Source of the DNA: Bacteroidetes bacterium B1(2017) | GTDB taxonomy: Bacteria > Bacteroidota > Bacteroidia > UKL13-3 | DNA: 64,000 bases | Direction of reading: 5' to 3' | NCBI GenBank assembly: GCA_002256395.1 | Contig: NKJG01000002.1 | Span: 209,098 to 273,097, forward strand | In this document: positions 1 through 39,811 of the stretch, piece after piece | Numbering within the stretch: position 1 is the stretch's first letter | How the letters are laid out: every line of letters starts with the position of its first letter | Notes under the pieces: model-generated | What the model was told of the DNA's origin: nothing | The model's input: only the letters and a program-made list of their open reading frames with translations | Database searches by the model: none | Program-made: the position numbers and the translations under genes

Positions 1-3000
1 TTCAATAGCAAGTATTTCCTTACCCATAAGGTCAATCAGTTTTAGGGTTGAACTCGATTTCGAATTTGTGTTTATTGAAATACTCGTATTTGTAGGGTTA
101 GGATAAACCGAAATGCTTGGCTCAATGAATTCTTCACTTGATAAGCCTGTAGAATGAGGCCTATTATTGCTTATCCAAATGCTAAACCTATTATTACCAA
201 ACGAGGCTGTATCTGAAGTTACATTGAATGATTTTATCAAAGGTTCTCCATTTAGTAGTTGAGTTTCGGTATGCGTGTATTTATCTAATAAAAATACTTG
301 GTAGAAATTAGGAAGACTTAGGCTTTCAACCTTTATAGTGTAGTTTCCTTGGGTGGCTGAACCTAAGCCTAGCGGAAGCTCTTTTTCACTATTATCTTCA
401 ATATTAGCAAGTGTGTTAATAGCATATTTCTTATTGTTTACATCATAGGAATAAATATTTACACCACTAGCATTTCCCATTTTTTCGGCATCTGCATCTT
501 CGTCAAATAAATCGGTTTTGTTTCGGTTAAATATAATTAAATGTTCATCCGATTTAGAGTTACTATTACTAAGGGTTAATCTAATTTCAAAGGGTTTATT
601 TCCCTTAAACATATTCGATGCAGCACTATTTGTTTTAGCAGCCTCTGTAACAGAAAGGATAGGGGATGCTGCATTTGCTTTTACAAAAAATGCTTGTCCA
701 GATGCAATAATATTTGTACCACCATTGGTTCCACCCGATCCTGTAACATAAGTTGCATATCTATCGTTGGCTGGATCAAAAATCCAAGTAGTTCCCAAAA
801 CATTTGTCTTCGTCCAACTTGCCTGATCCCAATCAATAGCGCATGGGTAAGGGTTTCCAACTAAATTCCATCCATCACCATTTAACGCATTGTAAGTAAC
901 AGCAAAAGTATGGTCTCCTGTTTTAACTGTACCACTCGCACTTAATGTTACATCAATGGGTGTATTGTTAGTTCCATCCAATAAGCCACATCCTTGGCTT
1001 CTATTACCTCTTATATAAACATTATAACCTGTTCCTGCAGTTAAGTTAGTAGAGCCAGTATTTGGGATGCTTGTCCAGGCGTTGGTATATACTGTGGCAC
1101 CACTAATATTAGGAGTGGTTGCAACAGGAGTTGCTGTTGCTTCATTAAATGTAAGCATACTTCCGTTATTATTAGTAGAAGCATCAAATCCATTTGAATG
1201 TGCTGTTAAGCTTGGGCAAGCAGTTCCACCAGAACCAGAACCAGTTATATAAATTTGTTGTTGCCAAGATGAGGCAATGGTAGGACCAGAGCTAAAAGGA
1301 GCCGCAAGATTTCTGTATTTTCTTCCAGATGTAGCAGATGGAATATAGCGTTCTACGGTCACATTTCCTGTAATAGAACCACTTGAACCAATAGAGGCAG
1401 TTCCAGTATTATCTGATTTTAAAGTTAATAGTCCGGCTGTGGTCAAGGTTCCGCTAAATGTTATTTGGCCACCAGCAGAAACAGATTTCATACCTGCACC
1501 ACTTATGGTAATATTTACATAAGCCCTAGGTGTTACTGTTTGAGCCGATGCAGAGGTATATTCAATAGTTGAGCCAGAGCCTAACGTAATAGTAGGTGTA
1601 TTAGAAGTACTAATTGTAGTGCTTGTACTGCCGCTAAATCCTTCTGTTTTCGATGTCTTTAAAATTCCATTTATGGTAAAGGTAGCAGACGCACCTGAAG
1701 CAATAAGTTGATTATTTGCAGCATCTAAAATACCACCACTTGCAGCAACAGTTAAGTTTGTAGATGCACCTAAATTTAAGTTGCCAACTAAGGTTGCAGA
1801 AGTAGAAGAACTAATAGTAATACCATTTGTGTTTGTTAAGGTTAATGATGTTCCGCCATTTGTTCCTAATTGAGCGCTAGTTCCTGTAATACTCCATACT
1901 CCTGTTCCAGATGCAGTCATTGCATTGGTTCCACCCAAACCAACAATTCCATATTTAAATGTTTTTGTACTATTACCTGTCCAACCTAAAGTTACCCCGC
2001 TTGCAAGTTCAACCCTGCCATTAAATGTAGTTTGAGTGCCAGCTCCCAAAGAAGCAATGGTTTGTCCAAATCTAAAAATTGGAATTTCTGTGGTTACATT
2101 AGGGAAGTAGGTAACACCTGATGTAGATGGTGAAGAAGATAAATTATACAATAAAATACCACCCGTTTCATAAACATGAGTAGAAGCATTTACGCCAGCA
2201 TTATTAGCAGTTAATCCAGTAGATTCAACACTTAGAATTCCACCGGTTTTAATTCTAATGTTTGAACTAGCAGTATAGGTAAAAGTACTTACAGTGTAAT
2301 TTACTCTTCCACCTGATTCAATACTAATATCATCGCCCGTTCCATTATTAACTGTCATTGCAGCAGAAACTATTAAAATTCCTCCACTTTGAACCACAAC
2401 CTCATCTACAGTAGCTGTTGCAGAAACAGTAACCGTATGGCCGTTTTGAATAGTTATTGTACTATTTGAGCTACTTGGTAAATCTGCAGAAAGTGTTACT
2501 GTTGCATATGTAGAACCACCATTTGCCGATCTTTCCCATGTTTCGCTACCAGAAGTTACTCCATTCCAATTTCCAGTGCGTAATGAGCGATAAATATAAC
2601 TTGCAGGACCCGCATTAATATCAAAACTAGAGCTTGTTACATCCCAGTCAAGAGTAGAAGTTCTTTCGGCATTTAAAGTTAAGGTAGTTCCTGTAACAGT
2701 ATGTGTTAAGCCAGCAAAAGTAGCTAAACCAGAACTAGCTGCCACATCAATAGGTGAACCTGTTAAGGTTCCAGTTGATGTAATTCTAATGGAGCTTGTA
2801 AAATCTAAATCTCTATTTCCATTCCCATCATTTGCACTAACTGTTACATCTGTCATAGCTACATTGCTAGTTGTATTAGCAGGTTGAGCAACAAATGCTA
2901 AAGCTGTTGCAGTAACTTCTAATCTATTCACATCGACGCTTGTAGAAGAGGCTGCAGCCCCAGCACTAGCTGATGCAAAACCAGATAGAGTAGCTGTTGA

Positions 3001-5925
3001 TGTTGCAGAACTAACCGTAAAGGTTAGTTGCTGATTATCTGTTACAGTTGATTGATAAGTAACTCTTAATTCAAAATCTTTTGTTCCACCATCTGTGCTA
3101 GTACTTAAAGTTAGTCCAGAAAAAGTAATGCTTGTTCCACCATTTACAGCAATCTCTGCTATATTACTTGAACCATCAAATAAGGCTGCTGTTCTAATGG
3201 CAGTTGAACCACCTGTGCTAAATGTAATATCTGTTAAAGTAGTGGCTAAGTTATCAGCATCAGTAGTTACACCACCATCGCGCAATGTTAGTCCATTTAC
3301 ACCTACACTATTGGCTAAAGTTAAAGTACTAGAAGTTTGTTTAGCGGCATAATCAACATTACTGGTGTAAGTATATCCAGCGGTATTTGTAATATCAGAT
3401 GCTACCGAAACTGTTCCAGAACCAGTAACCGTAAAGGTATACGTTCCTTCATCAGTATCATTATTAATGATTGTAATTATAGTAGTTTTAGCTCCTGCTG
3501 TGGTTGGGTTAAACGTAACAGTAAAAGTAGTTGTATTACTTGGAGTAATTGGACTGCTTGCACTAGCGGTATTTAGAGTAAAATCTGTAGTATTTGAACT
3601 TGTTATACTTGAATAGGTTAGATCTAAGGTGCCTAAATTTTCAATAGTAAAAGTTGTGGCCGAACCCGAATTGCCAGAAACAATGCTACCAGCGGCATAG
3701 GTACCACTACCCGATACTATACTGGTTACATTTTGTTTTACATTTATTTCTGGAGCAGCAGAAGTTACATTAAATGAATTACTAAGATCTGTAAACGACC
3801 CTTGTGTAGCCGTTAATTGATTTGTGTTTGAAGCTGTTGAAAATACTAAATTATTTAATGTAGCTACACCTGCAACCATTGCAACTGTAGTGGTTGCAGC
3901 TCCTCCAAAAGTTGTTGAACCAGAAGAAATAGTTAAAACAACATTCGATGTATTGTCTAAATCGTAATTTACGTTTGCGTCAATTGCTCTAACAGTTGGA
4001 GATGGGTTCATCACAGAATTTTGAGCTACATGACTTACATTTTGGTCAAAAATTATATCAGTAGTAGCTACTTCAATTTTGTTATTATCTCCACTAGTGG
4101 AAGTGGCTGCTGCCCCAGCATTGGCTGCCGAAAAACCTGATCCCGCTCCGCTTGCTGTTGCCGAAGATACCGTAAATGAAATTTGTTGATTATCTGTAAC
4201 AGAACTTTTAAAAGTAGCTCTTAATGAAAAAGTTTTACTCCCATTATCTGATGGTGCTAAGGTCAGTCCAGAAAAGCTAGAGGTAGCAGTTACCGAAGTT
4301 AGCTCACCAACATTTGTGCTACCATCAAAAATTGCTAGGGTACGAATATTTGAAAAGTTGGCAACTGTAAAAGAAATAGCAGTTAACGTAGTGCTTAATG
4401 CATCTGCATCCGAACTGCCACCACCATCTTGAATATCAAATTGGCCTACTTCAATTGAATTACCACTTGTTAATGTAGAAGCAGTTTGGTAGGCAGAATA
4501 ATCAATATTTGTTGGGTGTGTAAAGCTAGAATTTAAAATAATATTCGACGATGATGAGGATGAATTTGTAATTGAAACATTATCCAACCCTACTGTTAAA
4601 TTTGTAGAACCAGAGGAATTGTCTCTCCAAGATGCCCATCTTAATTGATAATTTGTGCTAGTTGAAAGTCCTGTTATAGATAAAGATGATTTACTTGTAA
4701 CACTATTCAGGATTGGCGTAGATCCACCGGCTGTGAAAGTAACAGAACTCCCAGATACAGAAGTCCAAGACCCCGTTGTACCTGCTCTATATTCTAATTC
4801 AATCCCCATGGTCCTATATCCCGATGCAGAATACAAAACCTCAATGTCATACGAAACATTAACACTAGTTAGTGATCCAGTATTTATAGTTAAAAATGGT
4901 TGATTTAAACCACTCGTTGTGCTACTTGATGTAGCTATCGCAAGTTCTCCGTTTGAGGATAATCCATATCCTAAAAGTCCGCCTGTTGGTTCAGAAGCTA
5001 TTGCACCTGCTTGGGCAGTTAAACCAATTAAAGAACCTGAAGGTGTGGTTGCCAATGCCGTAGCTTGACTAGCAGTAGCACTGCCATCTTGGGCCCTTCC
5101 ATGAAACCCAGCTGGATAGGTAGTAAAGGAGGCAGAGGTTCCAAAATTTTGTGAATAAGGCAAGCTCTGGGGAAAAACTAATGTTACATTATCTATACCT
5201 ATTCCTTGTCCATTGGTTGAACCACCATTACCAGTATATCTCCACCTAAAATAATAGGTAGACCCATTTGTAATACTTAATCCTGTTAAACTTACACTTT
5301 TACTTATTGTAACAGCCGGGTTTGAAATTACCGTATTATTTGCATCCGCTGCGTAGCTTTGGTCTCCAGCTGTTGCAGATGTATTTACACTGGTATTTGT
5401 ACCTCCGTGAAAAAATGTCCAATCAAAAGCTCTTGAACCCGACCTGTATTTTTCATAATCAAAATGCAAATCTAATGCTGTTATTGTGCTGCCGGTATTA
5501 TTTGTGAAGGCAAAAAAGATATCTCTTGGTGAGGTATATGCTCCTGCTGTTAAAAATCCAATAGCCCTCTCTGTTGCACTACCAGTTATACCATTTGCCC
5601 AATTTATTGCACCTCCACTTGATGATGAAGTTACAGCTCCTGATCCTGTATTTCCATAAGCAAGGGTTGTAGCTGTTGTATTTCCAGCAGCTGTCCAATC
5701 GGCTGTATTGTTTCCAAATTTAAATCCTGTTGGTAAACTGGCAGTACCACTTGTTCCAATGGTAAAATCTTGGAAGTAAGTTGAAGAGGTTGTTATACTT
5801 ACTTGACTCATTACACTGTTAGTACCCAAAAACAAGCACATAACACTTAAACCTATAAACCTAAATAAAGAAAACTTGCCTTTACTTTTAGAAAGGCTTT
5901 GATACTGTAAAACACTTTTTTTCAT
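1..5925 (-). CDS. Giant Ser/Thr/Gly-rich cell-surface protein with T9SS (Por) C-terminal sorting domain; partial, C-terminal ~30 aa lie beyond the window start
   Basis: My own minus-strand translation gives an ATG at 5925 (MKKSVLQYQSLSKSKGKF..., signal-peptide-like). The frame stays open to position 1 (...SVYPNPTNTSISINTNSKSSSTLKLIDLMGKEILAIE). The YPNP + I.I + LIDL.GK motif is the Por_Secre_tail signature. Two ~390-aa internal modules repeat (NQQISFTVSSATASG.. and NQQLTFTVSSATSTA..). It is absent from the ORF track only because its stop lies outside the window. Confidence 0.75.
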   Translation of the reverse strand, partial: MKKSVLQYQSLSKSKGKFSLFRFIGLSVMCLFLGTNSVMSQVSITTSSTYFQDFTIGTSGTASLPTGFKFGNNTADWTAAGNTTATTLAYGNTGSGAVTSSSSGGAINWANGITGSATERAIGFLTAGAYTSPRDIFFAFTNNTGSTITALDLHFDYEKYRSGSRAFDWTFFHGGTNTSVNTSATAGDQSYAADANNTVISNPAVTISKSVSLTGLSITNGSTYYFRWRYTGNGGSTNGQGIGIDNVTLVFPQSLPYSQNFGTSASFTTYPAGFHGRAQDGSATASQATALATTPSGSLIGLTAQAGAIASEPTGGLLGYGLSSNGELAIATSSSTTSGLNQPFLTINTGSLTSVNVSYDIEVLYSASGYRTMGIELEYRAGTTGSWTSVSGSSVTFTAGGSTPILNSVTSKSSLSITGLSTSTNYQLRWASWRDNSSGSTNLTVGLDNVSITNSSSSSSNIILNSSFTHPTNIDYSAYQTASTLTSGNSIEVGQFDIQDGGGSSDADALSTTLTAISFTVANFSNIRTLAIFDGSTNVGELTSVTATSSFSGLTLAPSDNGSKTFSLRATFKSSVTDNQQISFTVSSATASGAGSGFSAANAGAAATSTSGDNNKIEVATTDIIFDQNVSHVAQNSVMNPSPTVRAIDANVNYDLDNTSNVVLTISSGSTTFGGAATTTVAMVAGVATLNNLVFSTASNTNQLTATQGSFTDLSNSFNVTSAAPEINVKQNVTSIVSGSGTYAAGSIVSGNSGSATTFTIENLGTLDLTYSSITSSNTTDFTLNTASASSPITPSNTTTFTVTFNPTTAGAKTTIITIINNDTDEGTYTFTVTGSGTVSVASDITNTAGYTYTSNVDYAAKQTSSTLTLANSVGVNGLTLRDGGVTTDADNLATTLTDITFSTGGSTAIRTAALFDGSSNIAEIAVNGGTSITFSGLTLSTSTDGGTKDFELRVTYQSTVTDNQQLTFTVSSATSTATLSGFASASAGAAASSTSVDVNRLEVTATALAFVAQPANTTSNVAMTDVTVSANDGNGNRDLDFTSSIRITSTGTLTGSPIDVAASSGLATFAGLTHTVTGTTLTLNAERTSTLDWDVTSSSFDINAGPASYIYRSLRTGNWNGVTSGSETWERSANGGSTYATVTLSADLPSSSNSTITIQNGHTVTVSATATVDEVVVQSGGILIVSAAMTVNNGTGDDISIESGGRVNYTVSTFTYTASSNIRIKTGGILSVESTGLTANNAGVNASTHVYETGGILLYNLSSSPSTSGVTYFPNVTTEIPIFRFGQTIASLGAGTQTTFNGRVELASGVTLGWTGNSTKTFKYGIVGLGGTNAMTASGTGVWSITGTSAQLGTNGGTSLTLTNTNGITISSSTSATLVGNLNLGASTNLTVAASGGILDAANNQLIASGASATFTINGILKTSKTEGFSGSTSTTISTSNTPTITLGSGSTIEYTSASAQTVTPRAYVNITISGAGMKSVSAGGQITFSGTLTTAGLLTLKSDNTGTASIGSSGSITGNVTVERYIPSATSGRKYRNLAAPFSSGPTIASSWQQQIYITGSGSGGTACPSLTAHSNGFDASTNNNGSMLTFNEATATPVATTPNISGATVYTNAWTSIPNTGSTNLTAGTGYNVYIRGNRSQGCGLLDGTNNTPIDVTLSASGTVKTGDHTFAVTYNALNGDGWNLVGNPYPCAIDWDQASWTKTNVLGTTWIFDPANDRYATYVTGSGGTNGGTNIIASGQAFFVKANAASPILSVTEAAKTNSAASNMFKGNKPFEIRLTLSNSNSKSDEHLIIFNRNKTDLFDEDADAEKMGNASGVNIYSYDVNNKKYAINTLANIEDNSEKELPLGLGSATQGNYTIKVESLSLPNFYQVFLLDKYTHTETQLLNGEPLIKSFNVTSDTASFGNNRFSIWISNNRPHSTGLSSEEFIEPSISVYPNPTNTSISINTNSKSSSTLKLIDLMGKEILAIE

Positions 5926-6208
5926 ATACTATTTTTTATTTTTGATTTCAGTTACTTTAGAGTTAAAATCAAAATCTTACTACTTAACTCGGGGTAAAAG
6001 TCATCTCACTACTTCAACTAAACATCATCCTAATGTTTCGTTTATGTTAATGAAAAAAAATGACTTCATACAGGTGTATTTTATATCCTTCAAAGGACGC
6101 ATACCCCAAAATAATTTGCAAGCAATAGCCATCAACTAAATCCAGTAAACCGGATTTAATTTTAGTTTTAGAAAATTAAAAATGCTTAAGATGCCTAATG
6201 GGCGTAGG

Positions 6209-7450
6209 TTACAGAGTTTGGCTCGAACCCATTTCTTGTATAGCTAAATAAGCCATAAGTCCAGACCCAAGAGCTAATGCGTCTTCATCAATATCAAAAG
6301 TAGGGGTATGCACACCCGAAATAATACCTCTTGATTCGTTCCTTGTTCCTAATCTATAAAAACACGCAGGTGCAACTTGTGAGTAATATGAAAAATCTTC
6401 GGCAGCCATCCAAATATCTAAATCTAACACATTTTCTATACCAAGATATTCTTGCGCAGCAGTTTTTGCTCTAGCTGTAACTTCTGGGTTGTTTTTAAGA
6501 AACGGATATCCTTTTCTAATTTCAAAATCAACAGAACCGCCAAATCCTTCAGCAATACTAGTAGCTGTTCTTAGCATCAATTCATGTGCTTTTGCTCGCC
6601 AGTTTTCGTCAAGAGTTCTAAAGGTTCCTTCTAAATAAACCTCATTGGGTATAACATTAGTAGCTCCATTGGCTATTACTTTTCCAAAGCTTAATACACT
6701 TGGAATAATAGGATTACTTTGTCTACTTACCAATTGCTGCAAAGCTGTAATCATTTGTGCTGTAATTGCAATTGGGTCAATACATAAATGAGGCATGGCA
6801 CCATGACCACCTTTTCCTTTTACTGTAACATATAATTCATCAGTGCTTGCCATATATAAACCACTTCTAAAACCTACCTTACCAACAGGTATAAGTGGCA
6901 TTACGTGCTGACCCAAAATTGTGTTAACAGTAGGGTTTTCAAGAATACCTTCCTGTATCATTAAGCTTGCACCGCCAGGAAGTTTTTCTTCTCCAGGTTG
7001 AAATATAAGTTTAAATGTGCCTTCAAAAAGATCTTTATGATCCATCAATAATTTAGCAACGCCCAATAAACAAGTTGTATGAACATCATGGCCGCATGCA
7101 TGCATTACTCCGTGGTTCTTTGATTTATATTCCACCTCATTGGCTTCAATTATTGGAAGGGCATCCATATCGGCGCGCAGGGCAATGGTTTTAAAGGAAG
7201 GATTTTTTCCTTCAATTAATACTTCCAATCCAGTTACTGCCATTTCCTTTATTTGAGTAATTCCCATTGCCTCTAACTGGGCCCTCACATAGGCAACAGT
7301 TTCAAATTCTTTAAATGAAAGTTCTGGATGACTATGGATATGCCTGCGAATGGTAATTAATTGGTCAGAAAGTGAATTTGCTTGTGATTTAATGCTTGCT
7401 AGTATGCTCATAACTAAAGCAAAAGAAATCATAAAACTCCATTTTACCAA
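6209..7450 (-). CDS. Peptidase M20D-family amidohydrolase (aminoacylase / hippurate-hydrolase-like), secreted
   Basis: 413 aa with an N-terminal signal peptide. It carries the M20 metal-binding motifs HACGHD and MDALP and the dimerisation-domain pattern. Confidence 0.8.
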   Translation of the reverse strand: MVKWSFMISFALVMSILASIKSQANSLSDQLITIRRHIHSHPELSFKEFETVAYVRAQLEAMGITQIKEMAVTGLEVLIEGKNPSFKTIALRADMDALPIIEANEVEYKSKNHGVMHACGHDVHTTCLLGVAKLLMDHKDLFEGTFKLIFQPGEEKLPGGASLMIQEGILENPTVNTILGQHVMPLIPVGKVGFRSGLYMASTDELYVTVKGKGGHGAMPHLCIDPIAITAQMITALQQLVSRQSNPIIPSVLSFGKVIANGATNVIPNEVYLEGTFRTLDENWRAKAHELMLRTATSIAEGFGGSVDFEIRKGYPFLKNNPEVTARAKTAAQEYLGIENVLDLDIWMAAEDFSYYSQVAPACFYRLGTRNESRGIISGVHTPTFDIDEDALALGSGLMAYLAIQEMGSSQTL

Positions 7451-7541
7451 AGACTGACATTATTCATGTAGTTTCAATCGAATGCTTACATTTGATTTGT
7501 CGTTTAAACCTACATAAATTACTAATTCATAAGTAAAGAGT

Positions 7542-7790
7542 ATGCAACTAAATAAAAACATCGCCGTGAGTGAAAACGGATTTATTTTCAACCCGGTTAG
7601 TGGTGATTCATTTTCAACCAACCCAATTGGTCAAGAAATTATTAGGTTAATGAAGGATCAAAAGGATAGAAAAGAAATTACAAAAATTCTGGCAGATAAG
7701 TATGCTGCCGATGATGCCACTATTGAAAAAGATTTAAGTGATTTTTTTCAAATGTTATTGTCGTACCAATTAATAAACGACCATGAATAG
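7542..7790 (+). CDS. PqqD-like small protein (RiPP recognition element fold)
   Basis: 82 aa with a PqqD-type pattern (NIAVSENGFIFNPVSGDSFSTNPIGQEIIRLM...ILADKY.....IEKDLSDFFQML..QLI). It ends in ...DHE, a C-terminal Glu. Its stop overlaps the next ORF's start (ATGAATAG). Confidence 0.6.
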   Translation: MQLNKNIAVSENGFIFNPVSGDSFSTNPIGQEIIRLMKDQKDRKEITKILADKYAADDATIEKDLSDFFQMLLSYQLINDHE

Positions 7791-8832
7791 GCGCAAAATA
7801 ACCGTTGCCGTTTCTGGATTAAATAATATTGATAGTCCAGGCCCAGGTATACCCGTTATTAGAGCATTAAAAGAAAGTACAGAGTTTGATGTTCGAATAA
7901 TTGGTTTGAGTTACGAAACTCTTGAACCGGGATTATATATGCACGATTTGGTTGATAAATCTTATTCTATTCCATTGCCTTCTTCTGGTATGGATAGCTT
8001 ATTGGTGCGTTTAGAATATATACATTCGAGAGAAAAGTTAGATGTTATTATCCCAAATTTTGATGCCGAATTGCATAGTTTTATTAAGCTTGGACCTATT
8101 CTAAAATCAAGTTATAATATCGCTACCTTCATGCCAGATCTAGAAACATTTGAATCGCGACATAAGTCAGTTCTGTATGAATTTGGTGAAAAGAATGAGG
8201 TAAAAGTGCCTAAAGCGAAAATGATTTATTCACCTGCTGAAATAGGAGCAATAGGTCAAGAACTAGGTTACCCTTTAGTTGTAAAAGGTAAATACTATGA
8301 TGCAAGTATTGCGGCAACTCCAGAGCAAGCTGTGAACTATTTTCATAAAATTGCCAATAAATGGGGACTTCCAATTATCCTTCAAGAATTTGTTTCGGGT
8401 AATGAGGTAAATGTTACTGCAATAGGCGATGGAAATGGAAATTGTATTGGAGCTGTTCCTATGCGTAAGTTATATATTACGGATAAAGGAAAGGCTTGGG
8501 CAGGTATTTCATTATTAGATGAGGAGCTTATAAAAATAGCTAATCGTGTAATTGCAAATTCTAAATGGCGCGGAGGTTGTGAACTTGAATTTATAAAATC
8601 AAAAGAAGGAGAGTATTACCTATTAGAAATGAATCCTCGTTTTCCAGCTTGGGTTTATTTAGCTGTTGGTTGTGGTCAGAACCACCCCGAAGCACTTGTG
8701 AAATTGGCACTAGGCGAAGATGTTAAACCCTATGAAACCTATGAAAGCGGGAAGCTCTTTGTTCGCTATTCGTTTGATCAAATAGTTAGCCTTCAAGAAT
8801 ATGAAAAAATTTCAACCTTGGGCGAACTATAA
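7783..8832 (+). CDS. ATP-grasp domain protein (CPSase/PylC-like carboxylate-amine ligase)
   Basis: 349 aa with a pre-ATP-grasp N-domain. It has a GYPLVVKG ATP-binding region and the E(L/M)NPRF motif typical of CPSase/biotin-carboxylase-type ATP-grasp enzymes. It overlaps the PqqD-like gene by 8 nt. Confidence 0.75.
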   Translation: MNRRKITVAVSGLNNIDSPGPGIPVIRALKESTEFDVRIIGLSYETLEPGLYMHDLVDKSYSIPLPSSGMDSLLVRLEYIHSREKLDVIIPNFDAELHSFIKLGPILKSSYNIATFMPDLETFESRHKSVLYEFGEKNEVKVPKAKMIYSPAEIGAIGQELGYPLVVKGKYYDASIAATPEQAVNYFHKIANKWGLPIILQEFVSGNEVNVTAIGDGNGNCIGAVPMRKLYITDKGKAWAGISLLDEELIKIANRVIANSKWRGGCELEFIKSKEGEYYLLEMNPRFPAWVYLAVGCGQNHPEALVKLALGEDVKPYETYESGKLFVRYSFDQIVSLQEYEKISTLGEL

Positions 8833-8893
8833 AAAATACTACCGACATAAAATCATTTAAATAAACATTAAAAAACTTTCAATTTCTATACAT

Positions 8894-10252
8894 ATGGCAA
8901 AGTTAAGTTATGAGCGTCCAGTTATTCAAAAGTTAAATACTGGAAGTATGAATAAATTTGGTACCCGCACAGAATATGCTCCGGTTACCCATATAGAAGG
9001 TGTGGCTGTTAAAGATATTATTGCAGAATATGGTTCGCCAGTTTTTGTTATTAGCGAGCAGCAAATACGAAGGAATTATCAGCAAGCTGTTAGAGCGTTT
9101 AAAACCAGATATCCTAAGGTTCAATTTGCCTGGAGTTACAAAACAAATTACATGAATGCGGTTTGTAATGTGTTTCATCAAGAAGGTTCATGGGCAGAGG
9201 TTGTATCCATTTTTGAATATAAAAAAGCCATAGGTAATGGCGTTCCAGGAAATAAAATTATTTTTAATGGTCCCGATAAATCGGAGGAGGATTTAATACT
9301 TGCGGTTAAAAATAAATCGCTTATTCATATTGATCATTTCGACGAGCTATATATGTTAATTGAAGTTGTTCAGAACCTAAAAATGAAGGCTTCAGTTGCC
9401 ATTCGTGTGAATATGGATGTAGGCGTATATCCAATGTGGGATCGCTTTGGATTTAACTATGAAAATGGCCAAGCTTGGAATGCTATAAATAAAATTATGA
9501 GTCAGCCAGAGCTAGAATTAAACGGTTTGCATTGTCATATTGGAACCTATATGTTAACCTCTGCAGCCTACGCAACTGCGGCTTGGAAGCTGTGCGATTT
9601 GGCTATTAACATAAAGTCTAAATGGAATAAAATAATCCAATACCTTGATTTGGGTGGTGGCTTTGCCTCAGCTAATACGTTGAAAGGTAGTTACCTTCAG
9701 GGGCCAGATATAATTCCAAGTATGGAAGATTATGCAGAAGCAATTTCATCAACCATCCTAAACTTTGGTTTCAAACCGAATGAATTGCCTACCCTGTTTT
9801 TAGAAACTGGCAGAGCTTTAATTGATGATGCAGGCTATCTTTTAGGTTCGGTAATTGCCACCAAACGCTTAAGCGATGGTCGTCGTGCCACCATTATGGA
9901 TTTTGGTGTGAACCTATTGTTTACTGCTTTCTGGTATAACCACAAAATTTCACCTGCACAAGAATTCTCCCACCATACAGAAGATATGGTAGTTTACGGG
10001 CCACTTTGCATGAATATTGATTGTATTAGAGAGAGTGTAAACCTACCATTATTAAGCAAAGGCGATCAAGTGGTGGTTCATAAAGTAGGAGCATACAACA
10101 TGACTCAATGGATGCAGTTTATTCAAATGCGCCCTAATATTGTTATGGTTGATGCTAAGCAGCAAGTTCATCTTATTCGTCATAAAGAATCGGTTGAAAC
10201 CATGTTGCAATATGAGCATATGCCTGCTCATCTTGAAAAGTTTGAGTTGTAG
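8894..10252 (+). CDS. PLP-dependent decarboxylase, Orn/DAP/Arg decarboxylase family 2 (alanine-racemase-like TIM barrel)
   Basis: 452 aa. It carries the family motifs DLGGGF and HCHIGT (HxHxGS-like), and the length matches DapDC/ODC-type decarboxylases. Confidence 0.75.
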   Translation: MAKLSYERPVIQKLNTGSMNKFGTRTEYAPVTHIEGVAVKDIIAEYGSPVFVISEQQIRRNYQQAVRAFKTRYPKVQFAWSYKTNYMNAVCNVFHQEGSWAEVVSIFEYKKAIGNGVPGNKIIFNGPDKSEEDLILAVKNKSLIHIDHFDELYMLIEVVQNLKMKASVAIRVNMDVGVYPMWDRFGFNYENGQAWNAINKIMSQPELELNGLHCHIGTYMLTSAAYATAAWKLCDLAINIKSKWNKIIQYLDLGGGFASANTLKGSYLQGPDIIPSMEDYAEAISSTILNFGFKPNELPTLFLETGRALIDDAGYLLGSVIATKRLSDGRRATIMDFGVNLLFTAFWYNHKISPAQEFSHHTEDMVVYGPLCMNIDCIRESVNLPLLSKGDQVVVHKVGAYNMTQWMQFIQMRPNIVMVDAKQQVHLIRHKESVETMLQYEHMPAHLEKFEL

Positions 10253-10296: not shown

Positions 10297-12486
10297 TTGA
10301 ACATGAAAAAAGAACTTAATTGGCTATATTTTTTGGATACTGTACTGAACAGTTATAGCCAAATATTTTTTTCTTTAAACAAGCTATTTGCTAGCACTAT
10401 ACTTTTGGTAACATTTTTTGATCCAAAGGTTGGGTTATTTGGTCTAGTATCTGTTTTGCTAGTGAACCTAATGGCCTTTGCCTTTGGATTTAATAGAAAA
10501 GAAATAAGAGAAGGTATTTTTGGCTTTAATGCCTTGCTATTTGGATTGGCCATGGGTTTTAGATTCGAGATAAACGGAGCATTCCTTGTTTTGTTTTTTG
10601 TTTCGAACCTAAGCTTATTAGTTACAACAGCCGTCTTTAAGGGTAGTTTTGGTAAGGTACAATTGCCCTTTTTAAGTTTCCCGTTTTTACTAAGCTATTG
10701 GATAGTTTGTCTTGCCGTTAGTAGCTTAAGTAATATTCATTTGGCTGCGCCTGTGGTTTATTCTGAAATAGGAGTGCCTGGAGTTCAAAGTTTTTTTGAG
10801 ACTCTAGTGCATAGTTTGGATACTGTTTCAATGCCTGTATTAATTAAAATTTTCTTCAAAACTTTGGCTGCAACATTTTTTATTTCATCGGTTTTAGGTG
10901 GTTTATTAATTGCTATTTCTTTGTTTTTATTTTCGCGTATAACCTTCTCCCTTGCTGTGTTTGGGTTTACTGCGGCATTTTATGTGTATGATATTTTTGG
11001 TGCAGATATTTATCAACTTTCAGATAATATGGTTGGGTCGAACTATATCTTTTTTGCTATTGCGATAGGTGGCTTTTACCTCATTCCAAATTTGTATTCG
11101 TATGCAAGTAGTTTGGTTTTGGTACCCGTTTTATTATTAATGCAAATTGCCTTTGATAAATTATTTACTGGTTTTGAACTTAAAACCTTTACCCTTGCAT
11201 TTAGTGTTTTAACCTGTATCTTTTTATATGCCCTTCATCAAAGATGGATGCATAAATTTTTACACCTTGTTACCATTCAATATTATTCGGCCGAAAAAAC
11301 AGTTTATAAATATTTAAATGCCTTAAGTAGATTCAATCAAGCACACTTAAAGAAATTTGCTTTGCCTTTTTGGGGTGAGTGGCAGGTAAGCCAAGCATAT
11401 GATGGTAAAATAACTCATTTGGGCGATTGGAGTAAGGCTTTAGATTTTGTGGTGGTGGATGAAAAGTTAAAAACCTATAGAGAACCTGGACTTCATCTAA
11501 ATGATTTTTATTGCTATAATAAACCTGTTTTAGCTCCTGCCGATGGATATGTATATGCTATTTTTAACCATATAGATGATAATGAAATTGGGGTGGTTGA
11601 TACCGAAAAAAATTGGGGAAATAGTATCCTTATAAATCATTTGGATGGGGTGTTTTCACAAATAAGCCATCTTAAAAAGGACTCTTTTAAAGTAGCAGTT
11701 GGTGACTTTGTACAAAAGGGAACTTTATTGGCAGCATGCGGCAGCAGTGGGCGTTCACCAGAGCCTCATATGCATTTCCAGCTTCAAACAACCCCAACCT
11801 TAGGGGCAAAAACCTTAGCTTATCCCTTGGCCTATTACTTAGAACTTGGAATTACTAAAGAATGGGAGTTAAAACAATTTGAAGTACCCAAACAAGATGT
11901 AATCATTTCAAATGTTATGCAAGAAAAGCTATTGCATGATGCGTTTGATTGGATGCCTGGTAAACAATTTCATTTCGTAATTGAGGGTAAATCTGATTTA
12001 ATTGAATGGGAGGTTTTTACAGATGAATACAATAGATTATACCTTTTTGAACCTAAAACAAACAGCTATGCCTATTTTGTAAACGATGGCACTCGCTTTT
12101 ATTTCACCGACTTTGAAGGAAGTAGAAAGAGTAGTTTGTTTCAATTATACACTAGTTGCTATTCAGTATTATTAGGTGTATATCCAAAAATAAATTTAGG
12201 AGACAAGCTACCATTGATTCATTTTAATCCGCCTATTTTAATTTGGTTTCAAGATGTTTTGGCTCCATTTTATTTATTTACGGAAGCACGTTTTTCAAGT
12301 AAAATTAGAAAGGTAGACCAATTATTAGCCCCACAACGAATAGAAATTGAAAGTAATGTGGAGGCACGTTTATTAAATCAGAAGTTTAAAAGCAGCACCT
12401 ATTCTATTGTTATTACAGAAAAAGGTGTTTCAGAATTAACATTACTTAATGGCCCTAAAACAGAAAAATGGATATGCGTAGATTAA
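10297..12486 (+). CDS. Polytopic membrane protein: N-terminal urea-transporter (UT)-like domain fused to C-terminal M23 (LytM) metallopeptidase domain
   Basis: 729 aa. The N-terminal ~330 aa are polytopic with UT-family-like motifs (SQIFFSLNKLFAS..., GIFGFNALLFGLAMGF). The C-terminus carries the M23 signature (HLDGVFSQISHL...GSSGRSPEPHMHFQL, i.e. the HxxxD...HxH arrangement). Confidence 0.7.
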   Translation: MNMKKELNWLYFLDTVLNSYSQIFFSLNKLFASTILLVTFFDPKVGLFGLVSVLLVNLMAFAFGFNRKEIREGIFGFNALLFGLAMGFRFEINGAFLVLFFVSNLSLLVTTAVFKGSFGKVQLPFLSFPFLLSYWIVCLAVSSLSNIHLAAPVVYSEIGVPGVQSFFETLVHSLDTVSMPVLIKIFFKTLAATFFISSVLGGLLIAISLFLFSRITFSLAVFGFTAAFYVYDIFGADIYQLSDNMVGSNYIFFAIAIGGFYLIPNLYSYASSLVLVPVLLLMQIAFDKLFTGFELKTFTLAFSVLTCIFLYALHQRWMHKFLHLVTIQYYSAEKTVYKYLNALSRFNQAHLKKFALPFWGEWQVSQAYDGKITHLGDWSKALDFVVVDEKLKTYREPGLHLNDFYCYNKPVLAPADGYVYAIFNHIDDNEIGVVDTEKNWGNSILINHLDGVFSQISHLKKDSFKVAVGDFVQKGTLLAACGSSGRSPEPHMHFQLQTTPTLGAKTLAYPLAYYLELGITKEWELKQFEVPKQDVIISNVMQEKLLHDAFDWMPGKQFHFVIEGKSDLIEWEVFTDEYNRLYLFEPKTNSYAYFVNDGTRFYFTDFEGSRKSSLFQLYTSCYSVLLGVYPKINLGDKLPLIHFNPPILIWFQDVLAPFYLFTEARFSSKIRKVDQLLAPQRIEIESNVEARLLNQKFKSSTYSIVITEKGVSELTLLNGPKTEKWICVD

Positions 12487-13802
12487 TATTTTTTCTTTTC
12501 ATTTGGCCCGTCTTAATAAACGCTCAACCACTTACCTACACTAGTGTTGAGGTTAAATCTTTAGAGTATTACAATGATTTTGAGTATAAAAAATTAACGA
12601 AACTAGGTGAGGAGGCTTTGGATCAAAAAATTGATTTTTACGACCTACGAGTGCGAATGGGAATTGCTTATTATAAAATGAACAAATTTGAACCAGCCAC
12701 CATTCATTTTATGAAAGCAGTTGAAATGAATCCATCTGAACCTGATATTTTATCCTATGCCTATAATTGCTTGCTAATTACTGCTCAATTTAATAGAGCA
12801 AATGCATTCCTAATTCAATATCCAACTACAAGTGCAAGCATAAAACCAAAATCAACAGGTTTAGGAAGCGTTGAAATAGAAACCGGTTTAATCAATACGA
12901 ATTTAGCATCTAGTTATTCGGGAGAGATTTTGCGAGAATCAGGTTCTAATTATGCCTCTGGTAATTTCTTTTCTAAAATGGCCTATACTCGTGTATATGC
13001 TGAGGGATTAGCCTCACCCGACCTTAGATGGCATTTAGGTGGAAATATTTTTCAATCAACCCACCTGAGTAAGCTTGAGTTTTTTGATAAGAATACAGAG
13101 GTAGAAAAGTCGAGCTTAAATTATCAATTCAATTTTGGGTTTACTAAATTGCTTGCACACGGATGGCAAACAGGTATTGGCATTGCTTATTATCGTCAAA
13201 ACTTCCCATTCCCCTACGTTTCATCAACTATTCAGCCACCACCTCCAAATTCGGTATTTAAGGATTCCATTGAAACATCAAACGCTGTTAGTATTAGCGC
13301 TCTTATTTCAAAACGCATGAAATATATAGAACCTATTTTAGTGCTTAATTACGGCGATTTCGATCTTAAAAATAGATTTCAAGCAGAATTAGGAATAACA
13401 ACTTTCCCATTGGGTCATCAACAATTATACACCTACACGAGTGGCTCGTTTATTAGAAGTGATGGGAGTAATTCATATGCCTTTAATCAAAAAATTGGCT
13501 ATTCATTTAAGAATTCAATCTCCCTTGAGGGAAGCTTTTTAAAAGGTTCTTTAGATAATTATATGTGCAATATGGGCTTCTTAACCTTAAATACATTTGA
13601 CCCTTTGAAATGGTCGGCTGGAGCCGATTTAAATTACAGAATAAAGAGGTGGATTATTACACCTGGCTATAGAATTCAAAAAAGAGCTGGATCTTATGAA
13701 AGCGAATCTGCTCCAATTGGTCCTGTTCAACCAACTATAAAGACGAACAATTTTTCTTATTCAACAAACTTATTTTTTATCACACTAAAATGTCAATTTT
13801 AA
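12468..13802 (+). CDS. Secreted TPR-like N-domain + predicted outer-membrane beta-barrel protein
   Basis: 444 aa. The start overlaps the upstream stop by 19 nt. It has a signal peptide and TPR-like helices at ~40-110. The C-terminal ~300 aa show alternating-hydrophobic beta-strand character and end in a terminal Phe (..LKCQF), typical of OMP barrels. Confidence 0.4.
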   Translation: MDMRRLIFFLFIWPVLINAQPLTYTSVEVKSLEYYNDFEYKKLTKLGEEALDQKIDFYDLRVRMGIAYYKMNKFEPATIHFMKAVEMNPSEPDILSYAYNCLLITAQFNRANAFLIQYPTTSASIKPKSTGLGSVEIETGLINTNLASSYSGEILRESGSNYASGNFFSKMAYTRVYAEGLASPDLRWHLGGNIFQSTHLSKLEFFDKNTEVEKSSLNYQFNFGFTKLLAHGWQTGIGIAYYRQNFPFPYVSSTIQPPPPNSVFKDSIETSNAVSISALISKRMKYIEPILVLNYGDFDLKNRFQAELGITTFPLGHQQLYTYTSGSFIRSDGSNSYAFNQKIGYSFKNSISLEGSFLKGSLDNYMCNMGFLTLNTFDPLKWSAGADLNYRIKRWIITPGYRIQKRAGSYESESAPIGPVQPTIKTNNFSYSTNLFFITLKCQF

Positions 13803-14429: not shown

Positions 14430-14816
14430 GTGAAAGATTTCAAGAAATATTATGTCATTCCTGCACCTCCAGAAGATGTGTATTTGGCTCTTACCAATGA
14501 ACCAACTATGATGCTTTGGACAGGTGATCAGGCTAGTTTTGTAGCAGAGGTAGGTTCAGAATTTTCTATGTGGGATGGAAGTATTGTTGGAAAAAATTTA
14601 GAACTTGAGCTTAATAAAAAAATTGTTCAAGAATGGTTTTTTGGAGAGGAACCAACCGAAACTCCAAGTATTGTAACCCTTAAGTTGCATGTTCATAACC
14701 AAGGAACATCAATTGAGGTAAGGCATACTAATATTCCCGACGAAGAATATGATGATATTATCGATGGTTGGACAAACAATTATATGGCAGAACTCTATGA
14801 GTTTTACGATGAATAA
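14430..14816 (+). CDS. SRPBCC-superfamily small protein (Aha1/AHSA1-like)
   Basis: 128 aa. Length and pattern fit the Bet v1-like/AHSA1 fold. It is the last gene of the same operon, 28 nt after the TPR gene. Confidence 0.45.
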   Translation: MKDFKKYYVIPAPPEDVYLALTNEPTMMLWTGDQASFVAEVGSEFSMWDGSIVGKNLELELNKKIVQEWFFGEEPTETPSIVTLKLHVHNQGTSIEVRHTNIPDEEYDDIIDGWTNNYMAELYEFYDE

Positions 14817-14822
14817 TTGGTA

Positions 14823-15458
14823 TTAATTATTAATTTCTCCCTTGCCTTCACGAATTACAATTGGGTCATCCGAAGTGCAATCAATAATGGTTGAGGGGAT
14901 ATTTCCACCCGAACCACCGTCGATAACCATATCCACTTGGTGTTCAAATTTTTCATGAATCTCCTCAGGATCGGTCATATATTCAATTATTTCATCCTCA
15001 TGATGAATGGTTGAAACAACAAGCGGCGAACCTAATTCCTTTATAATGGTTTGTGCAATGGTATTATCTGGAACCCTTATACCAATTGTTTTCTTGTTGC
15101 CAGCAAATAGCTTGCTTACATGGTTATTAGCCCTTAAAATAAAGGTAAAGGCACCAGGCAAATTATTTTTTAACAGCCTAAATACATTTTTATCAATAGC
15201 AGCTGTTACATCAGAAATATTTGCCAAATCAGAACATAATAGGGAGTAATTTACCTTTTCTGGTTTCTTTCCCATAATCCTGCTCATGCGCTCTATTCCT
15301 TTTCTCGAATCCATTCTACAAGCCATAGCATAAATCGTATCCGTAGGAATAATTATTACCCCATCCGAATTCAAAACATCAAGCACCTTTTTTAGGTCGC
15401 GTGGATTTGGATTTTTTGTATGTAGTGCGAGTAGCATGATATAAATGAAAAAAGGCAC
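14823..15458 (-). CDS. tsaC: L-threonylcarbamoyladenylate synthase (TsaC/YrdC family)
   Basis: 211 aa. It carries the YrdC-domain motif ..IIIPTDTIYAMAC.. (the PTDTVYGL equivalent). Confidence 0.75.
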   Translation of the reverse strand: MPFFIYIMLLALHTKNPNPRDLKKVLDVLNSDGVIIIPTDTIYAMACRMDSRKGIERMSRIMGKKPEKVNYSLLCSDLANISDVTAAIDKNVFRLLKNNLPGAFTFILRANNHVSKLFAGNKKTIGIRVPDNTIAQTIIKELGSPLVVSTIHHEDEIIEYMTDPEEIHEKFEHQVDMVIDGGSGGNIPSTIIDCTSDDPIVIREGKGEINN

Positions 15459-15516
15459 TGAGTAATGAAAAGGAAGTAATCCTCACTCATTATTCAGTGC
15501 CTAATTTAGCTAAAAA

Positions 15517-16737
15517 TTATAATTTTCCTGCAACAGCTTGCTGAACTAAATCAGCAGCTTCTTTTAATACAATAGCAGAGTATACTTTCAATCCCGACTC
15601 ATCAATTAATAATTTCGCAGCTTCGGCATTGGTACCTTGCAAACGAACAATAATTGGAACTGGAATATTGCCAATGCTCTTATAAGCATCAACAACACCT
15701 TGTGCAACACGGTCGCAACGTACAATTCCACCAAAAATATTAATTAAAATAGCCTTTACATTAGGGTCTTTCAAGATAATTCTAAAACCAGCTTCTACAG
15801 TTTTTGCATTGGCAGATCCACCCACATCAAGGAAGTTTGCAGGATCGCCACCAGATAATTTAATAATATCCATAGTAGCCATTGCTAAACCGGCACCATT
15901 AACCATACAACCAACGTTTCCGTCTAATTTAACAAAGTTAAGATTGTATTCAGCTGCTTCAACTTCGGTAGCATCTTCTTCAGATGTATCGCGCATTGCT
16001 TCGTAATCTGGATGACGGTATAAAGCGTTGTCATCAATATTTACTTTCCCATCAACTGCAATAATCTTATTGTCTGAAGTGCGCAATACAGGGTTAATTT
16101 CAAACATGGCCGAATCAGATTTGTCGTATGCTTTATATAAAGCGGTAACAAATTTCACCATTTGTTTAAATGCCTCGCCTTCGCAACCTAAGTTAAAAGC
16201 AATCTTACGAGCTTGAAAACCTTGTAAACCCACTTTAGGATCAATGGTTTCTTTATGAATCAAATGTGGAGTATGTTCTGCAACATGCTCAATGTCCATT
16301 CCACCTTCGGTAGAGTAAACAATAATGTTTTTACTTTGACCTCTATCAAGCATTACACTCATGTAATACTCCTTAGTTTCGCCAGGACCTGGATAGTATA
16401 CGTCTTGGGCTACCAAAACTTTACTTACTAGTTTTCCTTTAGGGCCAGTTTGTATTGTAACCAAAGTTCCTCCAAGGATATTTCCTGCAATTTCTTTTGC
16501 CTTATCGGCATTTTTTGCAACGGCAACACCTCTTTGTTCTTTTCCAACAATATTACCTTTCCCACGGCCACCAGCATGAATTTGGGCTTTTATAACCACA
16601 AAATCACTTCCAAATTGATCTTTCAATTTTAATGCAGCAGCATGGGCTTCATCAGCAGTCTCGGCAACTATGCCTTCCTGAACGGCAACGCCAAATGATT
16701 TTAAAATCTGCTTGGCTTGGTATTCATGAATATTCAT
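15517..16737 (-). CDS. sucC: Succinate--CoA ligase (ADP-forming) beta subunit
   Basis: 406 aa. The N-terminus MNIHEYQAKQIL... and the full-length pattern match SucC. Confidence 0.9.
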   Translation of the reverse strand: MNIHEYQAKQILKSFGVAVQEGIVAETADEAHAAALKLKDQFGSDFVVIKAQIHAGGRGKGNIVGKEQRGVAVAKNADKAKEIAGNILGGTLVTIQTGPKGKLVSKVLVAQDVYYPGPGETKEYYMSVMLDRGQSKNIIVYSTEGGMDIEHVAEHTPHLIHKETIDPKVGLQGFQARKIAFNLGCEGEAFKQMVKFVTALYKAYDKSDSAMFEINPVLRTSDNKIIAVDGKVNIDDNALYRHPDYEAMRDTSEEDATEVEAAEYNLNFVKLDGNVGCMVNGAGLAMATMDIIKLSGGDPANFLDVGGSANAKTVEAGFRIILKDPNVKAILINIFGGIVRCDRVAQGVVDAYKSIGNIPVPIIVRLQGTNAEAAKLLIDESGLKVYSAIVLKEAADLVQQAVAGKL

Positions 16738-39677: not shown

Positions 39678-39727
39678 GTGCCATTAGCAAAAAAAAATGG
39701 ATGATATTACTGAATATCATCCATTTG

Positions 39728-39811
39728 TGCCGTGGAGGAGACTCGAACTCCCAAGCCCTTGCGAGCACCACCCCCTCAAGATGGCGTGTCTACCAATTTC
39801 ACCACCACGGC
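39728..39811 (-). tRNA. tRNA-Leu (anticodon GAG)
   Basis: Reverse complement folds as GCCGTGG-TG-GTGA..TAGA-CAC-G-CCATC-TTGAGGG-GGTGG-[long variable arm TGCTCGCAAGGGCTT]-GGGAG-TTCGAGT-CTCCT-CCACGGC-A. This is a class II tRNA with a 7-bp acceptor stem and GAG at positions 34-36. CCA is not encoded. Confidence 0.85.

Follow-up and report, generated by a model that had tools for sequence, protein, structure and literature searches.

A PqqD-like recognition element in a conserved Bacteroidota operon and the decarboxylase N-terminal tail as its probable ligand

What does a peptide-recognition protein bind when no peptide gene accompanies it? This question is raised by a small PqqD-like protein encoded in a 64,000-nucleotide stretch of the genome of Bacteroidetes bacterium B1(2017) (contig NKJG01000002.1, positions 209,098 to 273,097; the whole stretch is hereafter called the window). 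The protein is classed as a recognition element (RRE) for ribosomally made, post-translationally modified peptides (RiPPs); RREs serve as class-independent beacons in the mining of RiPP clusters. In the window, the RRE gene overlaps the gene for an ATP-grasp ligase, which is followed by the gene for a pyridoxal phosphate (PLP)-dependent decarboxylase. From a leader-like motif, predicted disorder and covariation, we consider it probable that the RRE binds the N-terminal tail of this decarboxylase in the canonical leader mode.

The RRE and ATP-grasp gene pair and the search for a precursor peptide

On re-reading of the sequence, the coordinates of the gene pair given in an initial annotation of the window were all exact, and so were the overlap ATGAATAG, the 91-bp gap 5' of the RRE gene (7451-7541), the 61-bp gap 3' of the ATP-grasp gene (8833-8893) and the ...LINDHE ending of the small protein. 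For comparison, 80 loci were analysed out of the at least 565 in which the operon was confirmed. The RRE and ATP-grasp genes overlapped in 70 of 79 loci, and -8 nt was both the commonest value and the median. The kept overlap indicates that the two genes are translationally coupled, as the initial annotation had proposed.

The assignment of the small protein as a PqqD-like RRE was also borne out. It matched PF05402 with E=4.2e-12 and 46.7 bits (gathering score 23.4) over profile positions 4-67 of 67. A profile built from 32 homologues with 49-84% identity to the window protein matched TbiB1 (5v1u, E=4.1e-12, 65 residues), TfuB1/FusB1 (6jx3), PbaB1 (9x90) and LppB (9x8z) in the PDB, each of which is a discrete RRE whose structure was solved with a leader peptide. 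The invariant parts of the 32-sequence alignment were the N-terminal strand region, NIA.S..GF.FNP..GDSFS.N..G, and the helix that carries E62, D64, D67 and F68.

Discrete lasso-type RREs recognise leaders with the motif [Y/W]xxPx[L/V/I/F/A]; in LppB, N33 holds the leader's kink at the Pro in place, D70 forms a hydrogen bond with the leader Tyr, and F74 sandwiches the leader Pro and separates the two pockets, while mutagenesis showed that the N33 and D70 positions set the Tyr-versus-Trp preference (PMC13381572). In an ungapped hidden Markov model (HMM) alignment, with an LppB chain numbering offset of 18, N27 of the window protein corresponded to LppB N33 and PbaB1 G42, D64 to LppB D70 and PbaB1 Q79, and F68 to LppB F74; the same type of alignment paired Y54 with LppB Y60 and L72 with M78. 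These contact residues were kept almost throughout: N27 in 201/201 cases, D64 in 198/200 clade-1 cases (a second clade is described below) and F68 in 197/201. Furthermore, the groove residues N27, D64 or Y64, F68, Y54 and L72 made up the most conserved part of the RRE. The alignments thus indicate that the 82-aa protein is a genuine lasso-type RRE, which would be functional in the reading proposed here.

The initial annotation had also suggested that the C-terminal Glu of the small protein might make it a carrier like those of the LysW type, and had named a non-conserved C-terminus as an observation that would speak against this role. Such a C-terminus was found. The 32 homologues ended in HE, NE, YE, NA, NV, ID, KA, EQA, LV, ND or LE, with the last five residues varying freely, and the C-terminal-Glu carrier was rejected on this alignment. 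Likeness to LysW fared no better, since the 82-aa protein is free of Cys, which rules out a Zn-ribbon, and its end does not resemble EDWGE.

The absence of a precursor peptide gene, by comparison, stood up to a wider search. The six-frame scan of 7400-8950 yielded no plausible small open reading frame (ORF), just out-of-frame ORFs within genes. When 7,071 small ORFs with ATG starts, taken from the 80 loci between -2 kb and +1.5 kb of the operon, were clustered, the PqqD gene was the sole conserved family; the remaining small-ORF "families" were alternative-frame shadows of conserved genes. Overall, the precursor search reached about 10 kb of flank per genome. Since no conserved small ORF occurs across the 80 loci, the missing precursor is a property of the system and not of one genome.

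The decarboxylase tail and its covariation with RRE position 64

The gene after the ATP-grasp gene encodes a group IV decarboxylase, whose closest PDB match was the N-citrylornithine decarboxylase FslC (7kh2, E=1.9e-61), followed by diaminopimelate (DAP) decarboxylases, D-Orn/Lys decarboxylase and BtrK (E=1e-23). It scored below the cutoffs of both the LysA model TIGR01048 (224.2 bits, cutoff 297.9) and the FslC model NF041039 (238 bits, cutoff 500). Retained motifs are HCHIGT, DLGGG and E.GR, together with the context of the PLP lysine. At the position of CMQHD in FslC and GGLCESSD in the M. jannaschii DAP decarboxylase, the protein reads GPLCMNID, and it thus lacks the CES motif, which we take to be the substrate motif of DAP decarboxylases. 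Substrates of enzymes with this fold must offer a free alpha-amino acid moiety, and those of FslC and BtrK are amino acids with the distal group already acylated or tethered.

Compared with the M. jannaschii enzyme, the decarboxylase carries an N-terminal extension of about 18 aa (query residue 34 aligns with chain residue 16), and FslC aligned only from residue 35, so that the tail has no detectable similarity to FslC. The tail consensus M.KL.YERP[VFYIL]I.[KR]LN.G.MNKFG..., and with it the stretch YERPx[I/V/L], was found in at least 79 of 80 genomes. In the AlphaFold2 (AF2) model, built from a 40-sequence alignment, residues 1-27 had a predicted local distance difference test score (pLDDT) of 32-46 and no secondary structure, compared with about 90 in the adjoining core. 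A tail that is near-invariant yet predicted to be disordered is, as far as the model can be trusted, the signature of a docking motif.

The tail contains a stretch that fits the leader motif of the lasso-type RREs. In 148 loci, numbered from the tail aromatic, E+1 and P+3 were invariant and I+5 was present in 147; the aromatic itself was Tyr in 82 and Phe in 66. Moreover, K+15 and G+17 occurred in all 148 loci and F+16 in 137 of them, and in K21-F22-G23 we infer a candidate modification or cleavage site. The lasso leader consensus is YxxPxLx3Gx5Tx, with Tyr at -17 relative to core position +1. The Tyr-to-Gly spacing of 17 in the tail equals this Tyr(-17)-to-core(+1) spacing and suggests, by analogy, descent from a lasso-like precursor. 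A lasso-like macrolactam in the tail was considered and rejected, since no conserved Asp or Glu lies 7-9 residues past G23.

A 37-aa tail query against 1.84 billion representatives gave 34 matches. The 22 that were checked by sequence or length were all the same decarboxylase, namely 21 N-terminal fragments (assembly artefacts at ends) and one full-length protein, and no stand-alone peptide with the tail sequence was found among them. One other match was weak and internal, in a different protein of 990 aa.

Some decarboxylase fragments from this search read FERP, not YERP, and on the contig of one of them the RRE had Tyr at position 64. A metagenome scan seeded with the ATP-grasp of this contig gave a second clade in 288 further metagenome stretches, of which 80 loci were used. 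These second-clade loci had the same operon, with 54-58% (ATP-grasp) and about 60% (decarboxylase) identity to the window proteins. In the 148 paired loci, the combinations of tail aromatic and RRE residue 64 were Tyr/Asp (79), Tyr/Asn (3), Phe/Tyr (61), Phe/Ser (4) and Phe/Ala (1), with zero exceptions to this pairing. Two further divergent lineages (L164 and L165) were Tyr/Asp. On a neighbour-joining (NJ) tree of the ATP-grasp, the tail aromatic and RRE residue 64 switched state 3 times each, and these switches fell on the same branches. To control for shared ancestry, 82 RRE and 349 ATP-grasp columns were compared, and RRE column 64 alone split Tyr from Phe without error; the next-best predictor columns made 8 errors (RRE) and 3 errors (ATP-grasp). 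The pair also had the highest normalised mutual information, 0.755. Judged from the residues, the switches are chemically coherent, with a hydroxyl ligand paired with an Asp or Asn acceptor and Phe paired with Tyr, Ser or Ala.

The initial annotation had imagined the decarboxylase acting on an intermediate tethered to the small protein. The RRE, the ligase and the decarboxylase may still act jointly on something tethered, but the tether at the RRE C-terminus fell with that C-terminus, and the evidence points to the N-terminal tail of the decarboxylase.

The ligase, the downstream genes and the surroundings of the operon

The 349-aa ligase matched ATPgrasp_Ter, ATP-grasp_3, CPSase_L_D2 and Dala_Dala_lig_C in Pfam, and its best NCBIfam matches were weak ones to the PRK12767 "CPS-like" models. 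No graspetide maturase family of NCBIfam was matched at E<=0.01, and the Pfam and NCBIfam scans did not place the protein in the RimK/LysX family. Its AF2 model (pLDDT 80.9) had as top Foldseek neighbours biotin carboxylase, the structural-genomics entry 2pn1, carbamoyl-phosphate synthetase (CPS) and the L-amino-acid ligases RizA and BL00235, all at 13-19% identity. The predicted model confirms the ATP-grasp fold, and these neighbours agree with the earlier statement that the ligase is not of the microviridin type. In its C-terminal tail, D332, I334, E341, I343, T345, G347, E348 and L349 were invariant among 36 clade-1 sequences. The tail consensus ...F[EQ][KQ][IL]S[TM].GE[LI] was conserved in both clades, and almost all clade-2 examples examined ended in GE[L/I], with rare variants such as GVL. 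Conceivable roles for this tail are those of a lid, a docking site for a partner, a pseudo-substrate or an acyl-donor arm.

Table 1. Features of the RRE operon in the window (positions are those of the window)
Feature	Position	Strand	Basis
PqqD-like RRE, 82 aa, lasso-B1 type	7542..7790	+	Pfam PF05402, profile matches to solved RREs
RRE leader-contact stretch: N27 (7620-7622), Y54, D64 (7731-7733), F68 (7743-7745)	7620..7745	+	HMM alignment to LppB/PbaB1
8-nt overlap ATGAATAG, RRE stop / ATP-grasp start	7783..7790	+	Direct sequence reading
ATP-grasp ligase, 349 aa	7783..8832	+	Pfam/NCBIfam (generic level), AF2 model, Foldseek
ATP-grasp C-terminal tail, residues 329-349, ...EYEKISTLGEL, predicted disordered	8767..8829	+	pLDDT <50, conservation
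Group IV PLP decarboxylase, 452 aa, a DAP decarboxylase paralogue resembling FslC	8894..10252	+	Pfam Orn_Arg_deC_N, Orn_DAP_Arg_deC
Decarboxylase N-terminal tail, residues 1-27, proposed cis "leader" for the RRE	8894..8974	+	Extension, conservation, predicted disorder
Y6-E-R-P-V-I11, fits [Y/W]xxPx[L/V/I/F/A]	8909..8926	+	Motif definition from PMC13381572
K21-F22-G23, 15-17 residues past the tail aromatic	8954..8962	+	Conservation in 148 loci
Inner-membrane fusion, 729 aa: urea-transporter (UT)-like channel (residues 14-312), M23 (residues ~407-498), C-terminal domain (~500-729)	10297..12486	+	Pfam
Signal-peptide protein, 444 aa, N-terminal TPR and probable C-terminal outer-membrane beta-barrel	12468..13802	+	Weak TPR matches
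Signal-peptide TPR protein, 203 aa	13790..14401	+	Multiple TPR families

The gene order RRE, ATP-grasp, PLP decarboxylase, UT/M23 fusion, TPR protein (probable barrel) and TPR protein was found in essentially all of the 80 loci, and this six-gene synteny is common to both clades. The count of at least 565 species genomes comes from a scan with one genome per species. Because the arrangement recurs in these genomes and in the 288 second-clade metagenome stretches, it lies far above chance. The ATP-grasp had more than 6,500 database relatives, the best 120 of which (73-92% identity) came from Chitinophagales, Flavobacteriia, Sphingobacteriales, Cytophagales, Bacteroidales and Kapaibacterium. When the proteins of the 80 loci were compared with those of the window, identity ranged over 68-92% (ATP-grasp), 67-93% (decarboxylase), 42-88% (RRE), 36-71% (UT/M23 protein), 22-54% (first TPR protein) and 37-73% (second TPR protein). 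The last three genes overlap each other in most loci. The gene content and order indicate a conserved six-gene operon, unlike a sporadic RiPP cluster. The operon was seen in Bacteroidota from environmental, digester and gut-associated sources; Petrimonas sulfuriphila DSM 16547 is a cultured example. In public databases, the first three proteins are labelled "PqqD family" or "HPr-rel-A system PqqD family protein", "ATP-grasp domain-containing protein", and "diaminopimelate decarboxylase" or "alanine racemase".

The UT/M23 gene followed the decarboxylase gene in every locus with a long enough contig. Its 729-aa product matched UT (E=1.3e-47) and Peptidase_M23 (E=4e-14) in Pfam, and urea transporters and M23 peptidases in the PDB. 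The UT score of 162.8 bits against PF03253 (cutoff 25) indicates that the UT fold is present, while TIGR03441 gave 91.1 bits (cutoff 274.6). The M23 domain scored 53 bits (cutoff 28.7) and has the H...D, catalytic His and HxH motifs; ITH..D...ALDF, NWGN..I.NH and PHxHFQ were kept at 95% or more in 66 orthologues. The last ~230 residues had no Pfam match. Both termini of the UT fold are cytoplasmic, and the segment after the last UT helix is basic, that is, positively charged, in the window protein. By analogy with this fold and from the flanking charges, the M23 domain is probably cytoplasmic; Kyte-Doolittle hydropathy was too crude for a helix count of this protein.

The 444-aa gene overlaps the UT/M23 gene by 13 nt in most loci. 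Its product matched OMP_b-brl at just E=0.39, and most orthologues end in an aromatic residue, as outer-membrane barrels do, which makes a beta-barrel probable. In three loci (L039, L044 and L052), an unrelated signal-peptide protein of about 305-318 aa (MRN.II..SIIF...QSFLNANYL...) stood in place of the 444-aa protein, and the outer-membrane component of the operon appears to be exchangeable between lineages. The 203-aa TPR gene was kept at its position in 60 of the 80 loci, usually with a 13-nt overlap with the gene upstream.

Other departures from the common order were observed. A 692-aa secreted protein was inserted between the decarboxylase and UT/M23 genes in L059 (12952-15030), a 162-aa transposase-like ORF lay in or beside the operon in L070 (12545-13033), and a TPR gene had moved upstream in L063 (7529-9763). 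The operon is thus, to judge from its gene orders, tolerant of interruption after the decarboxylase gene.

Directly upstream of the RRE gene, on the same strand, 20 of the 80 loci encoded a LytTR response regulator and 15 a histidine kinase; 13 loci had an ECF sigma factor there, and 11 had an AraC-like protein, the families being named by reading representative sequences. The AraC-like protein has an HMA-like N-terminus, and the type of regulator differs by lineage. The upstream genes suggest that the operon is inducible and that its regulators were rewired repeatedly. Among the flanking genes of the 80 loci, no amino-acid or polyamine genes were found, and regulators alone recurred.

In the window, an M20 amidohydrolase gene (6209-7450, minus strand) is divergently transcribed from the operon; its product is CpsA/DoeB-like and has a signal-like N-terminus. 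M20 enzymes release the products in LysW-type pathways. As a part of the system, this gene was ruled out, since it is a neighbour only in the closest relatives. Likewise, the genes at 14430-16737, for an AHSA1/SRPBCC protein, a Sua5/YciO/YrdC (TsaC-like) protein and succinyl-CoA ligase beta, are housekeeping genes that are neighbours only in close relatives, and the window genes at 14.4-25.5 kb as a whole have housekeeping or envelope functions. At the other side, a stop-free frame of at least 1,976 codons (1-5928, minus strand) runs off the window start. It has a signal-like N-terminus and a HYDIN/VesB-like Ig domain as its sole Pfam match, and is probably a very large secreted or surface protein. 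An Rfam scan of the whole window at gathering thresholds gave no riboswitch or other RNA family, tRNA included, though ARAGORN called a tRNA-Leu(GAG) at 39727-39811 (minus strand). The promoter and terminator scan, which is uninformative for Bacteroidota, gave counts at or under the shuffle expectation.

The proposed explanation, its rivals and known systems

We propose that the ligand of the RRE is the disordered decarboxylase tail K-x-x-[Y/F]-E-R-P-x-I...G...K-F-G (residues 1-27), and neither a separate precursor nor the RRE's own C-terminus. The [Y/F]ERPxI stretch would sit in the RRE groove, with the aromatic by residue 64 and the Pro by N27 and F68. Such a ligand would explain the operon's lack of a precursor gene. 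Since the RRE is co-translated with the ATP-grasp, it most likely tethers the ligase and the FslC-like decarboxylase into a single complex. There the ATP-grasp would form an amide bond first, and the decarboxylase would then strip the alpha-carboxylate from a moiety with a free alpha-amine, an order that follows from the FslC and BtrK homology and the need for a free alpha-amino acid moiety, if the homology holds for function. Precedents are the conversion of citryl-ornithine to citryl-putrescine in rhizoferrin synthesis and of gamma-Glu-S-BtrI to GABA-S-BtrI in butirosin synthesis. The UT-like channel/M23 fusion, the TPR/barrel protein and the periplasmic TPR protein would release and export the product. 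Towards this fuller scheme, in which binding of the tail couples the two enzymes and the remaining proteins handle the product, we lean by a little.

Several points weigh against the proposed explanation. With a motif background of about 1% of N-termini and about 12 termini inspected, the motif alone is weak evidence. The low pLDDT is weaker evidence of disorder than usual, because the AF2 alignments were shallow (36-40 sequences, 73-90% identity), and other loops of the decarboxylase model also fell below 50. Two large clades dominate the covariation; the figure of about 3 independent switches is an estimate from an NJ tree with very short deep branches, and the mutual information of a clade-marker column, ATP-grasp column 43, comes close (0.67 versus 0.755). 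The gene overlap is the only basis for regarding the ATP-grasp as the partner held by the RRE, and its substrate is not assignable because its fold neighbours are generic and distant. Moreover, a plain ligase-decarboxylase pathway has no evident use for an M23 peptidase and a narrow urea-type channel. The invariant K21 and G23 and the GE[L/I] tail of the ATP-grasp are not explained by a pure adaptor role and leave a carrier or substrate role open for the decarboxylase tail.

The latter role is the main rival. Here the RRE would present the tail, the ATP-grasp would load an amino acid onto it, for example on the epsilon-amine of K21, and the decarboxylase would process the swinging arm; the probably cytoplasmic M23 domain would cut the (iso)peptide bond, and the product would enter the fused channel. 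The carrier would thereby have moved from the PqqD protein to the tail. This is a minority possibility, which draws on several observations. K+15 and G+17 are invariant despite their place beyond the RRE-binding motif, the decarboxylase is a homologue of BtrK, whose substrate is carrier-tethered Glu, and the catalytic residues of M23 are intact in a domain that follows the last UT helix with a positive flank. The match of the 17-residue spacing to that of lasso leaders fits as well, as does the LysW pathway, in which an ATP-grasp enzyme and a carrier are joined by a releasing metallopeptidase. However, any covalent modification is hypothetical, K-F-G could be conserved just as well for contacts with the surface of the ATP-grasp, and a single-site carrier on an enzyme would limit throughput. 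To our knowledge, M23 enzymes are peptidoglycan or Gly-Gly endopeptidases and do not release isopeptides, which also counts against it. An elaborated form, in which the tail is a built-in carrier arm derived from a lasso-like leader, with loading on Lys21 or on the ...GEL tail of the ATP-grasp, decarboxylation in cis, possibly repeated rounds, release by M23 and export by the TPR/barrel proteins, appears unlikely.

The remaining rivals give the tail no such part. In a classical RiPP pathway, the precursor would be encoded elsewhere in the genome, and the tail motif would be coincidental or merely competing. RREs normally bind separate precursors, some RiPP precursors lie away from their clusters, and a gene beyond the flanks searched would have escaped. 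Nevertheless, we consider this rather unlikely, as no small ORF is conserved around the 80 loci, the ligase and decarboxylase keep 68-93% identity from one Bacteroidota order to another, unlike the parts of sporadic RiPP clusters, and the covariation of RRE position 64 is specific to the decarboxylase tail, which was never seen as a free peptide. It is more doubtful still that the RRE binds no peptide at all and is a structural subunit of the ATP-grasp, with the tail as an oligomer interface of the decarboxylase and the covariation as phylogenetic noise. The dominance of two clades in the statistics, the short deep branches and the shallow AF2 alignments would allow for this; however, the groove is the most conserved part of the RRE, column 64 was the sole error-free one among 431, and the Tyr/Phe switches are chemically sensible. 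Loading of the PqqD-like protein itself as a LysW-type carrier is scarcely credible: ATP-grasp enzymes do partner such carriers and the window protein does end in Glu, but the last five positions vary, there is no Cys, and it is the leader-binding face that is conserved instead.

If the proposed binding of the decarboxylase tail is true, RRE-leader recognition would serve in nature for enzyme assembly or cis-presentation and not for the capture of a free precursor, and this would explain a class of "orphan" RRE matches together with hundreds of Bacteroidota loci under generic annotation. It predicts, at the level of residues, that Y6 of the tail is matched by D64 of the RRE, and Phe by Tyr, Ser or Ala. 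At the same time, it draws attention to a six-gene pathway that is strongly conserved and brings components of its own for the membrane and the outer membrane. If the tail were instead a carrier arm, the operon would represent a protein-templated route to a secreted amide or polyamide, conserved across Bacteroidota. In full-text literature searches, neither this operon nor the binding of an enzyme tail by an RRE came up.

The closest known counterparts of the small protein are the lasso B1 RREs (TbiB1, FusB1/TfuB1 and PbaB1) and LppB, with which it shares the PqqD-family domain, the contact residues and the [Y/W]xxPx[L/V/I/F/A] motif of the ligand; as in LppB, the residue at the D70 position would tune the accepted aromatic. 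In the lasso and LPP systems, however, the motif is on a precursor of 30-200 aa, whereas here it is on the N-terminus of a 452-aa decarboxylase, and the Phe variant of the motif, paired with Tyr, Ser or Ala at position 64, occurs here. Neither a B2 protease nor a lasso cyclase is found in the operon, nor is a kinase or a glycosyltransferase, and an ATP-grasp is the partner instead. Thus, the B2 protease, the Asn-synthetase-like cyclase and the precursor with a core that define a lasso system are missing from the six conserved genes. A graspetide system is not indicated either, as no precursor was found beside the ATP-grasp (in the 80 loci, or in 7400-8950 of the window) and no maturase family was matched.

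With LysW/LysX/LysK, the operon shares an ATP-grasp, a small accessory protein and a metallopeptidase that could release the product. The 82-aa protein falls outside the LysW-type carriers by its variable C-terminus and Cys-free sequence, without a conserved C-terminal Glu, Zn-ribbon or EDWGE, and the peptidase is an M23-channel fusion and not an M20 enzyme. The butirosin proteins BtrI (acyl carrier protein, ACP), BtrJ (ATP-grasp) and BtrK (PLP decarboxylase) offer the same succession of an ATP-grasp and a BtrK-homologous group IV decarboxylase, and BtrK is a precedent for the decarboxylation of a tethered amino acid; no ACP or phosphopantetheine site is present in the operon. Rhizoferrin FslA/FslC provides the closest solved decarboxylase, the CM[N/Q]xD motif and the ligate-then-decarboxylate logic. 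The ligase here, however, is an ATP-grasp and not an NRPS-independent siderophore (NIS) synthetase, none of which is in the operon, and the decarboxylase is under the FslC cutoff. Siderophore clusters are not known to have an RRE, M23 peptidase or UT-like channel, all of which are present here. Finally, in borosins (OphMA) the core peptide is fused to its modifying enzyme, with no RRE, and engineered leader-fused synthetases exist. In these enzymes, as proposed for the decarboxylase tail, the recognition or substrate peptide is covalently part of a pathway enzyme and a separate precursor is unnecessary; compared with borosins, the leader-like motif here is on a different enzyme than the one coupled to the RRE.

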